DNA from: a virus
Lineage: Duplodnaviria > Caudoviricetes
Virus record (IMG/VR): IMGVR_UViG_3300044961_000667
DNA length: 64,000 nucleotides
Strand: one strand, 5' to 3'
The notes under the pieces: model-generated
The model's database searches: none
What the model was told of the DNA's origin: nothing
What the model saw: only the letters and a program-made list of their open reading frames with translations
Made by a program: the position numbers and the translations under genes
In this document: positions 8,310 through 8,841 of the stretch, in pieces
How the letters are laid out: each line of letters starts with the position of its first letter
Numbering within the stretch: position 1 is the first letter of the stretch

Positions 8310-8380
8310 TGCCCCTGCCGGGAATCGAACCCGGACCTCTCCCTTACCAAGGGAGTGCTCTACCTTCGGGCCACGGGGGC
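8310..8380 (-). tRNA. tRNA-Thr(GGT)
   Basis: CTCCC-TTGGTAA-GGGAG. Confidence 0.85.
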
Positions 8381-8779
8381 TCAACCAACCACGTACTTCT
8401 CAGCCAACTTCACACCGGACTTCTGACCGTTCTTGGCAGGCTCGACCCGAAGCTGCCCGCCAACGGCCCCAACCTCCTCGACCGGGACCAGATACACCGC
8501 ATCCAACTCTGGGCAGTGGACGCCGAAGAACTCGACCTCACCGCGGTACGACTTTCTCCCAGTCCCTCGGTGAGCCGAGTTGCTGCTGGTGTCGAAGACA
8601 ACCGCTCCATTCTTGAGCCGCCCAGTCTTGCACTGCACTCGCTGGAACCCGGCATCAGTGTCGATCACCAGGTCGTAGCGCTGGTTCTCTCCAATCGGGA
8701 GCAGCACCGTCCTCCCGGTCTTGAGCAACGCCGCCATCACCGCACCCTCTGTTCTCGTCCCCTGCGCCTTGGTGTTCAT
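8381..8779 (-). CDS. PD-(D/E)XK endonuclease (I-Ssp6803I / PDDEXK_5-like)
   Basis: G..TE…PIGENQRYDLVID…FQRVQCKTGR…YRGEVEFFGVHCPELDAVYLVP. Confidence 0.85.
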   Translation of the reverse strand: MNTKAQGTRTEGAVMAALLKTGRTVLLPIGENQRYDLVIDTDAGFQRVQCKTGRLKNGAVVFDTSSNSAHRGTGRKSYRGEVEFFGVHCPELDAVYLVPVEEVGAVGGQLRVEPAKNGQKSGVKLAEKYVVG

Positions 8780-8799
8780 GCTCCACATCTACCACACCG

Positions 8800-8841
8800 C
8801 TCGGACACCAGCCGAGTGCTCTGCCTTCGAGCTGCGGGGGC
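8800..8841 (-). pseudogene. 5' remnant of tRNA-Thr(GGT)
   Basis: GCCCCCG CA GCTC GAAGGCA GAGC A CTCGG CTGGTGT CCGAG, no T arm. Confidence 0.7.

Follow-up and report, generated by a model that had tools for sequence, protein, structure and literature searches.

A probable endonuclease element of 461 nt with a carried tRNA replacement part in the tRNA-Thr gene of an uncultured phage

IMG/VR record IMGVR_UViG_3300044961_000667 (Caudoviricetes), a 64,000-nt stretch of DNA that is hereafter called, in its whole length, the window, is from an uncultured myovirus and contains a long array of tRNA genes, in which a small endonuclease gene lies between a stranded piece of tRNA-Thr(GGT) and an intact tRNA-Thr(GGT). 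This element, designated cassette 2, is probably a 461-nt selfish element inside the phage's own tRNA-Thr gene. We consider, with a probability of roughly 0.8, that cassette 2 is a free-standing, intron-less mobile endonuclease element carrying a replacement part for the tRNA gene it interrupts. Mobile endonuclease genes in essential genes are usually thought to hide in self-splicing introns or inteins or to sit between genes. In the present case, an element is found inside an RNA gene without splicing, which would be possible through the carried spare of the displaced part.

Cassette-free relatives and structure of the insert

Relatives of the phage were reached via sequencing runs with common 31-mers and via contigs sharing an identical neighboring protein. 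Runs from other studies contained 55 to 60% of the 31-mers of 7900-9300, and contigs of four runs (X5, X7, X17, and X18, from four studies) were aligned to 4500-14200. Results revealed that near-identical phages in these four other metagenomes lacked exactly 461 nt, in register, and had one tRNA-Thr. The joint ran from 8338 to 8800 in X5 and X17 and from 8352 to 8814 in X7, with 461 nt skipped each time. Since 461 nt is also the offset between the stranded fragment and the intact gene (8841 minus 8380), each relative is left with a single in-register tRNA-Thr. The flanks of L009 (a 123.7-kb contig of run X7) and of L017/L013 (run X18) were 99.7 to 100% identical to the window, with the gene order Ala(TGC), single Thr(GGT), and Arg(CCT), while the flanking pieces of the X17 contig showed 0 and 2 differences. 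A stand-alone endonuclease ORF (open reading frame) is therefore present or absent at one precise 461-nt site among close relatives, and the insert, as defined by what these relatives lack, comprises a leader, the endonuclease gene, and a diverged copy of tRNA positions 1 to 43.

The cassette-free phages carried two alleles. Allele A (X5 and X17; two studies) was composed of the 42 bases of the fragment followed by bases 43-72 of the intact gene and thus has the old anticodon arm, and allele B (X7 and X18; two studies) was composed of the old bases 1 to 19, the new anticodon arm, and the same 3' part. Compared with allele B, the extra block of the window spans 8353-8813, with 9 nt of ambiguity in its placement. 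The resident 3' part was identical with and without the cassette, and alleles A and B and the gene in the window were each called tRNA-Thr(GGT) by ARAGORN. Moreover, three outgroup phages, reached via a conserved HNH protein and its DUF5661 neighbor, indicated that both anticodon-arm types are native variants of the phage group rather than decay products, since L030 has the old stem type (CTCGG, loop CTGGTAT, CCGAG) and L014 the new one (CTCCC..GGGAG), with L028 being intermediate. Pattern scans for either Thr allele returned none in IMG/VR or in Joint Genome Institute (JGI) metagenome contigs. Runs X12, X25, X26, and X19 contained 0.19 to 0.45 of the words of the ORF, which was not used as evidence for habitat or co-occurrence, and the mean depth of 0.73 in one ORF bin of run X17 was likewise not used as evidence.

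The features of the locus are collected in Table 1. The Thr fragment begins 3 nt past tRNA-Ala(TGC), which is the usual spacing in the array, and aligns without gaps to bases 1 to 46 of the intact gene (8841-8796; 34/46 identical), its weak similarity running on beyond 8800 as far as 8796. For positions 1 to 43, the old and new copies were identical at 31 of 42 bases. When the fragment was compared with the 39 tRNAs of the array, its best partner was tRNA-Thr(GGT), with a score of 22 versus 18 for the runner-up. The acceptor strand GCCCCCG, an unusual D-loop (GAAGGYA), and the anticodon GGT are common to both copies, while the anticodon arms differ (old CTCGG CTGGTGT CCGAG versus new CTCCC TTGGTAA GGGAG), as do positions 8, 9, 12, and 20 outside the arm, and the longest identical stretch between the copies is 9 nt. 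A 28-nt pattern spanning both copies had two sites in the window, exactly these, and no match in 100 shuffles. No tRNA was called by ARAGORN in the fragment plus leader. In the other gaps of the array, the best tRNA-alignment scores ranged from 9 to 16, apart from exceptions scoring 18 to 33 at 4972-6158, 9853-10339, and 10413-10455, three of the four being part of other cassettes.

Table 1. Features of the cassette 2 locus (all on the minus strand; tRNA positions in standard numbering)
Feature	Coordinates	Strand	Basis
tRNA-Ala(TGC), upstream neighbor	8845-8918	minus	ARAGORN and Rfam
Stranded 5' part of the old tRNA-Thr(GGT), 42 nt, positions 1-43	8800-8841	minus	Alignment, allele A
461-nt insert (leader, ORF, and new tRNA 5' part)	8339-8799	minus	Missing in near-identical phages
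11-nt leader CGGTGTGGTAG, from fragment to ATG	8789-8799	minus	
135-codon ORF of predicted PD-(D/E)XK endonuclease, I-Ssp6803I family, 408 nt	8381-8788	minus	
New tRNA-Thr(GGT) 5' part, 42 nt, positions 1-43, insert-borne	8339-8380	minus	
Resident tRNA-Thr 3' part (variable loop, T arm, acceptor 3' strand)	8309-8338	minus	
Intact tRNA-Thr(GGT), hybrid working gene	8309-8380	minus	ARAGORN and Rfam (58.2 bits)

An earlier note, made from the letters of this stretch without database searches, had described the order of Thr(GGT) remnant, PD-(D/E)XK ORF, and intact Thr(GGT), with GCCCCCG and GGT in common and different anticodon stems (CTCGG/CCGAG and CTCCC/GGGAG). This order is borne out and is supported by the cassette-free alleles, and the alignment agrees on the stems, with the addition that the loops differ too. 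The ORF stop was said to abut the 5' end of the tRNA, and indeed the TGA occupies 8383-8381 and base 1 of tRNA-Thr is 8380, immediately next to it. The intact gene had been regarded as new, which holds for its first 42 bases, borne by the cassette, and fails for its last 30, which are the resident 3' part. Comparative genomics, proposed there as a check, gave the near-identical phages described above; a remnant standing without the endonuclease, named in the same place as evidence to the contrary, was not found in them, since the same bases form the 5' part of a whole tRNA-Thr.

The edges of the insert have GAG on both sides, so the boundary is ambiguous by 3 nt. Two known kinds of tRNA-borne element were tried and ruled out. 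The absence of an intron, also claimed in the note, agrees with the lack of any Rfam group I match at E values up to 10 in 4500-14500, and the insert contains only 11 + 42 noncoding bases, the 42 being the tRNA part, which leaves no room for a ribozyme. An integrase island does not fit an insert in which the nuclease is the sole ORF, the end repeat is 3 nt (GAG), and the 5' part is duplicated. In addition, no sigma-70-like promoter or terminator was found in 7800-9400, suggesting that the ORF, having no promoter of its own, is probably read from the array transcript and freed by tRNA processing.

The endonuclease and homologous loci

The ORF is full length and intact, and its assignment to the I-Ssp6803I family, which the note had proposed, was confirmed by profile, sequence, and fold matches. 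Its sole Pfam match was PF11645 (E value of 3.3e-37; 128 bits versus a cutoff of 26.1), with residues 4-132 covering positions 1-135 of the 138-position profile, which places it in neither the GIY-YIG nor the HNH group. A phmmer comparison with I-Ssp6803I (PDB 2OST) gave an E value of 1.8e-9, and an AlphaFold model built with 74 homologues (predicted local distance difference test score of 92.8) had 2OST chains as its four top Foldseek matches (template modeling scores of 0.65 to 0.74), followed by Hjc resolvases and restriction enzymes. Eight residues invariant in all 74 family sequences (G10, P31, R37, D39, Q52, K54, R114, and A129) are present in the ORF. Among them, D39, Q52, and K54 share alignment columns with YDLV and VQVK of 2OST and are putative catalytic motif residues, an assignment that follows the family name. 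One gene caller placed the start at Met18; ATG 8788 (or 8779) is the likely start, because alignments to the family profile and to 2OST begin at residue 4-5 and JGI predicts a protein of 135 residues. The closest enzyme homologues sampled were at most 61% identical, and a second PF11645 gene of the window (10327-9899) was just 31% identical to the cassette 2 enzyme. G+C content at third codon positions was 0.75 to 0.78 in the cassette ORFs (this one and others) versus 0.82 to 0.93 in core genes, which fits a foreign origin.

All the homologue loci that were read lie in phage-like tRNA arrays and are co-oriented with the tRNAs, and in 10 of 11 the ORF ends within 25 nt of the 5' end of a co-oriented tRNA or overlaps it. 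In L025/L027, whose enzyme is 55% identical, a tRNA-Asn-like 5' fragment (positions 3-47) is separated from the ATG by 18 nt, and the end of the ORF overlaps an intact tRNA-Asn(GTT). Similarly, the L002 ATG is preceded at a distance of 19 nt by a tRNA fragment comprising positions 26-47. A related-locus search with the enzyme gave one distant locus, L001 (enzyme 29% identical), where the ORF has a tRNA-Ser D-arm fragment upstream and an intact tRNA-Ser downstream. The shuffle P value was ≤0.005 for each of the L025/L027, L002, and L001 fragments, indicating that the layout and the variable-loop junction recur in this enzyme clade. PF11645 homologues also occur in cultured phages, inside tRNA clusters and annotated as hypothetical proteins. 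For instance, the homologue of Pectobacterium phage My1 (L031, 1201-1668) overlaps the start of tRNA-Ile by 7 nt, and that of Salmonella phage PM10 (L033, 1105-1692) starts 23 nt past tRNA-Asn. As a side observation, the former anticodon loop of the upstream tRNA fragment reads TTGACAA in L002:1139-1181, L003:~846-893, and L025:2435-2500; with TTGACA standing 17 to 18 nt ahead of a weak -10-like hexamer, the stranded fragment may be reused there as a promoter of the endonuclease gene.

Proposed mechanism and alternative explanations

The insertion point is inferred to lie where the anticodon stem meets the variable loop, at position 43/44, with the data allowing 43-48. Insertion there would join the carried positions 1-43 in register to the resident positions 44-72, giving a whole tRNA-Thr(GGT) immediately downstream of the stop codon and leaving the original 1-43 segment, now displaced, as a dead fragment upstream. 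Because near-identical phages lack exactly 461 nt, tRNA-Thr appears to be kept working by the carried replacement and not by splicing. The enzyme would cut the cassette-free tRNA-Thr of co-infecting relatives near the 43/44 junction, and the cassette-bearing genome would serve as the repair template, with the cassette thereby copied in; the left homology arm would consist of the old 5' fragment and tRNA-Ala, and the right one of the common 3' part and tRNA-Arg. The carrier itself should be immune, because the cassette holds the old half-site (the fragment) apart from the resident right half-site and because the new copy has differences adjacent to the junction, at 30-32 and 37-40. Of the observed alleles, A alone has the sequence combination that the carrier lacks (old anticodon arm plus resident variable loop and T arm) and is for this reason the predicted target, with a recognition site across 43/44; we hold it to be somewhat probable that allele A is the target, with insertion at 43-48. 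Allele B, in contrast, should be immune, as it is identical to the carrier tRNA from position 21 on. It may have arisen by loss from a carrier through recombination at the 9-nt repeat AGAGCACTC, or from a cut allele A by short-tract repair from the intact gene of a carrier.

Several observations weigh against this reading. The cassette-bearing form was seen in one environment (runs X1 to X4 and one JGI sample, possibly one campaign), and no co-conversion tract was seen around the site, the nearest flank differences between L009 and the window lying at 9084 and 9402. Allele A was read from the alignment coordinates of contigs, not from full contig sequence; it has G37 in the anticodon loop, where A37 is usual for Thr, and may thus be a poor tRNA. 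The bases past the fragment (CGGTG) look similar to variable-loop sequence in L028 and L014. The fragment may hence reach 47-48 and derive from a previous host, which would make allele A a recombinant. A cassette-bearing ancestor could also have given rise to both A and B by exact deletion, at the 3-nt repeat and the 9-nt repeat. In the homologous loci L003, L005, L024, L023, My1, and PM10, no fragment of the downstream tRNA was found upstream of the ORF. Moreover, the ORF is a predicted I-Ssp6803I-type PD-(D/E)XK endonuclease, whose cleavage activity and target are deduced from sequence.

Deletion alone would suffice if the cassette were an old immobile resident, alleles A and B being two independent precise losses and the enzyme inactive or otherwise used. 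Consistent with this, both joints fall in the two best identity patches of the copies (GAG at 41-43 and the 9-nt repeat at 21-29), and the resemblance of CGGTG after fragment position 43 to the L028 and L014 variable loops, the unusual G37 of allele A, and the fact that no donor was seen, the closest sampled homologue being 61% identical, all point the same way. We nevertheless regard such a history as unlikely, considering that the ORF is full length with every invariant family residue, that a deletion at 3-nt microhomology must arise and then spread to two unrelated studies, that allele A looks like a natural variant, given the native old anticodon arm of L030, and that several endonuclease cassettes of the array are variably present in near-identical phages, which fits ongoing traffic. 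Alternatively, the target could be allele B, with entry within 21-29. The element would in that case combine an anticodon arm left over from an earlier host with the ORF and new acceptor/D-arm sequence, and the changes at 8, 9, 12, and 20 would confer immunity. L014, the closest diverged relative with the locus, is indeed B-like (CA at 8-9, T12, and CTCCC/GGGAG), and the joint of L009 and L017 maps to 21-29, but the element would then start with a partial anticodon arm, an odd structure, and allele A would still require a 3-nt deletion. Since the L025/L027 and L002 fragments reach position 47 and then pass into the leader, the family junction is at the variable loop and not the D arm, and we judge allele B as the target to be distinctly improbable.

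Two further explanations appear much weaker. In the first, tRNA-Thr was duplicated in tandem, the upstream copy decayed, and an unrelated nuclease gene landed between the two, with no replacement part carried. Tandem isoacceptor genes are frequent in the array, which would suit a duplication, yet relatives free of the cassette invariably have one tRNA-Thr between Ala(TGC) and Arg. Moreover, the new 5' part falls within the indel, which is exactly in register, and related enzymes are found in this layout at other tRNAs, making this scenario very hard to sustain. That the cassette or the cassette-free forms are assembly artefacts or chimeras was suggested by the Logan contigs of the source run, which are interrupted within the tRNA, L016 stopping at base 46 and L010 beginning at base 22; the presence of more than one allele in the same sample explains these breaks better. 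An independent JGI assembly (L011/L015), 100% identical to the window over 4500-9923, crosses the whole of cassette 2, the cassette-free joints were found in four runs of four studies, and copies sharing at most 9 identical bases cannot collapse at k = 31, so an artefact is scarcely credible.

If cassette 2 is the mobile element favored here, phages that are almost identical to each other carry a single site in three allelic states (susceptible-looking, occupied, and immune-looking). The gain-fixation-loss cycle of homing endonucleases could then be put to concrete tests in uncultured phages, and a route for the exchange of phage tRNA anticodon arms is suggested. The analysis also ties the I-Ssp6803I family to phage tRNA clusters, for which My1 and PM10 could serve as experimental systems. 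For annotators, tRNA fragments beside small ORFs in phage arrays may be footprints of such elements and not noise. More tentatively, and with odds that we place below even, I-Ssp6803I-family enzymes might form a widespread intron-less class in phage tRNA arrays that enters at or beside the anticodon arm and carries a diverged copy, with invasion, loss, or short-tract repair swapping anticodon arms as in alleles A and B. Were this so, these elements would be a main driver of phage tRNA sequence diversity and perhaps also of the escape of phage tRNAs from host anticodon nucleases, and old fragments would be reusable, for example, as promoters of endonuclease genes.

The surrounding tRNA array and known systems

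The window has a G+C content of 62 to 66%, and nearly all of its long ORFs, among them those of a tail sheath, a baseplate protein, and a tape-measure-like protein, are on the minus strand. ARAGORN called 39 tRNA genes and a transfer-messenger RNA (tmRNA) between 4894 and 13751, all on the minus strand, among which isoacceptor genes in tandem are common; an extra Leu-like tRNA with a long variable arm (7753-7839; Rfam, 44.4 bits) was not called by ARAGORN. Deposited phages showed only remote protein similarity to the window, and a megablast search of 7500-10500 against cultured and deposited phages found nothing beyond one 38-nt tRNA match.

Other inserts were observed in the array. The second PF11645 cassette (9900-10417) is composed of ORF 10327-9899 and a whole new tRNA-Pro(GGG) and splits the old tRNA-Pro(GGG) between positions 36 and 37 (parts 10418-10452 and 9862-9899); these 518 nt were missing in all four compared runs, and the old gene is whole in L009 (1416-1488). 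In L013:371-874 and L014:1152-1655, a 459-nt insert lies directly after the anticodon stem of tRNA-Met (window 7919-7991, site 7946-7949), for which the window represents the empty site. This insert consists of an HNH-type ORF (CxxC...CENCH, similar to window ORF 10763-11119) and a whole new tRNA-Met, and it is flanked by the old Met 5' and 3' parts. At tRNA-Asn(GTT) (12766-12841), X5 and X18 have 358 other letters replacing 5 nt of the anticodon stem/loop (12806-12812), probably another cassette that is absent from the window. The Ala(TGC)/Thr(GGT) junction itself has 355 extra nt in the 275-kb contig L030 (4515-4869), where a 34-codon ORF without a nuclease match ends 5 nt before the tRNA.

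Smaller differences were also noted. In L009:2832-2922 (and X17 or X18), 89 nt replace 14 nt between Arg(CCG) and Arg(ACG) (window 8143-8158), and in L009:1866-1967 (and X17 or X18), there are ~100 extra nt between tRNA-His and tRNA-Asp (window 9484). A tRNA-like stretch at ~6076-6141 (minus strand), between the tmRNA and tRNA-Ser(GCT), was not called by ARAGORN; its features are an acceptor-like closure of 7 bp, a T arm, and a CTA-centered loop (TTCTAAG), and a normal D arm is missing. In addition, the window tRNA with anticodon CTA (4894-4971) stands against a tRNA called Cys(ACA) at the corresponding site of some near-identical relatives (L009:6033-6106 and L012:2912-2985).

No description of the design of cassette 2 was found in the literature for phage tRNA genes or PF11645 enzymes, which is not proof of absence. 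Integrase-borne islands and prophages in tRNA genes likewise carry a copy of the displaced tRNA part and leave the tRNA intact, but they depend on attachment sites and a tyrosine integrase, span kilobases, and substitute the 3' end, whereas cassette 2 has no integrase, replaces the 5' part, and measures 461 nt. Within its own protein family, cassette 2 can be compared with I-Ssp6803I, a PD-(D/E)XK homing endonuclease encoded by the group I intron in the anticodon loop of Synechocystis tRNA-fMet (PMC3384342). The two share the PF11645 family, the fold, the motif columns YDLV and VQxK, and, as far as can be predicted for cassette 2, a target in a tRNA gene in or beside the anticodon arm. They differ in that the intron of I-Ssp6803I splices to restore the tRNA, while the intron-less cassette 2 would restore it at the DNA level by the carried positions 1-43, and in that the host is a cyanobacterial chromosome in one case and a phage tRNA array in the other. 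Moreover, I-Ssp6803I is a tetramer with a pseudo-palindromic 23-bp site, and cassette 2 is known from its sequence and predicted fold.

Cassette 2 appears to work like the Seg and Mob genes, yet it lies outside those protein families. SegB of T4/T6 is a free-standing GIY-YIG homing endonuclease in a tRNA cluster that recognizes a T-stem-loop motif (PMC2330249), and SegB homologues are described as widely linked to phage tRNAs (PMC13096335). Both SegB and cassette 2 are free-standing endonucleases in phage tRNA clusters that are variably present among close relatives, and the recognition of tRNA gene sequence with co-inheritance of neighbors would also be shared, the target of cassette 2 being a predicted one. 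Unlike SegB, with its GIY-YIG fold, cassette 2 lies within a tRNA and leaves a stranded 5' fragment; the available parts of the two reports contain no description of SegB inside a tRNA gene or with a replacement segment (PMC2330249 and PMC13096335). The nearest mechanistic parallel appears to be provided by mobile ORFs of fungal mitochondria, which bring a foreign C-terminal gene end and strand the native one (Allomyces macrogynus atp6; Glomus atp6, atp9, cox2, and nad3; PMC3630166). In both systems, an endonuclease ORF is accompanied by a diverged duplicate of the host-gene segment that is displaced, an unexpressed native remnant is left, and a functional hybrid gene results. The fungal elements reside in protein-coding hosts, replace the 3' end, and encode LAGLIDADG or GIY-YIG enzymes, whereas cassette 2 resides in an RNA gene of a phage, replaces the 5' two-thirds, and encodes a predicted PD-(D/E)XK enzyme.

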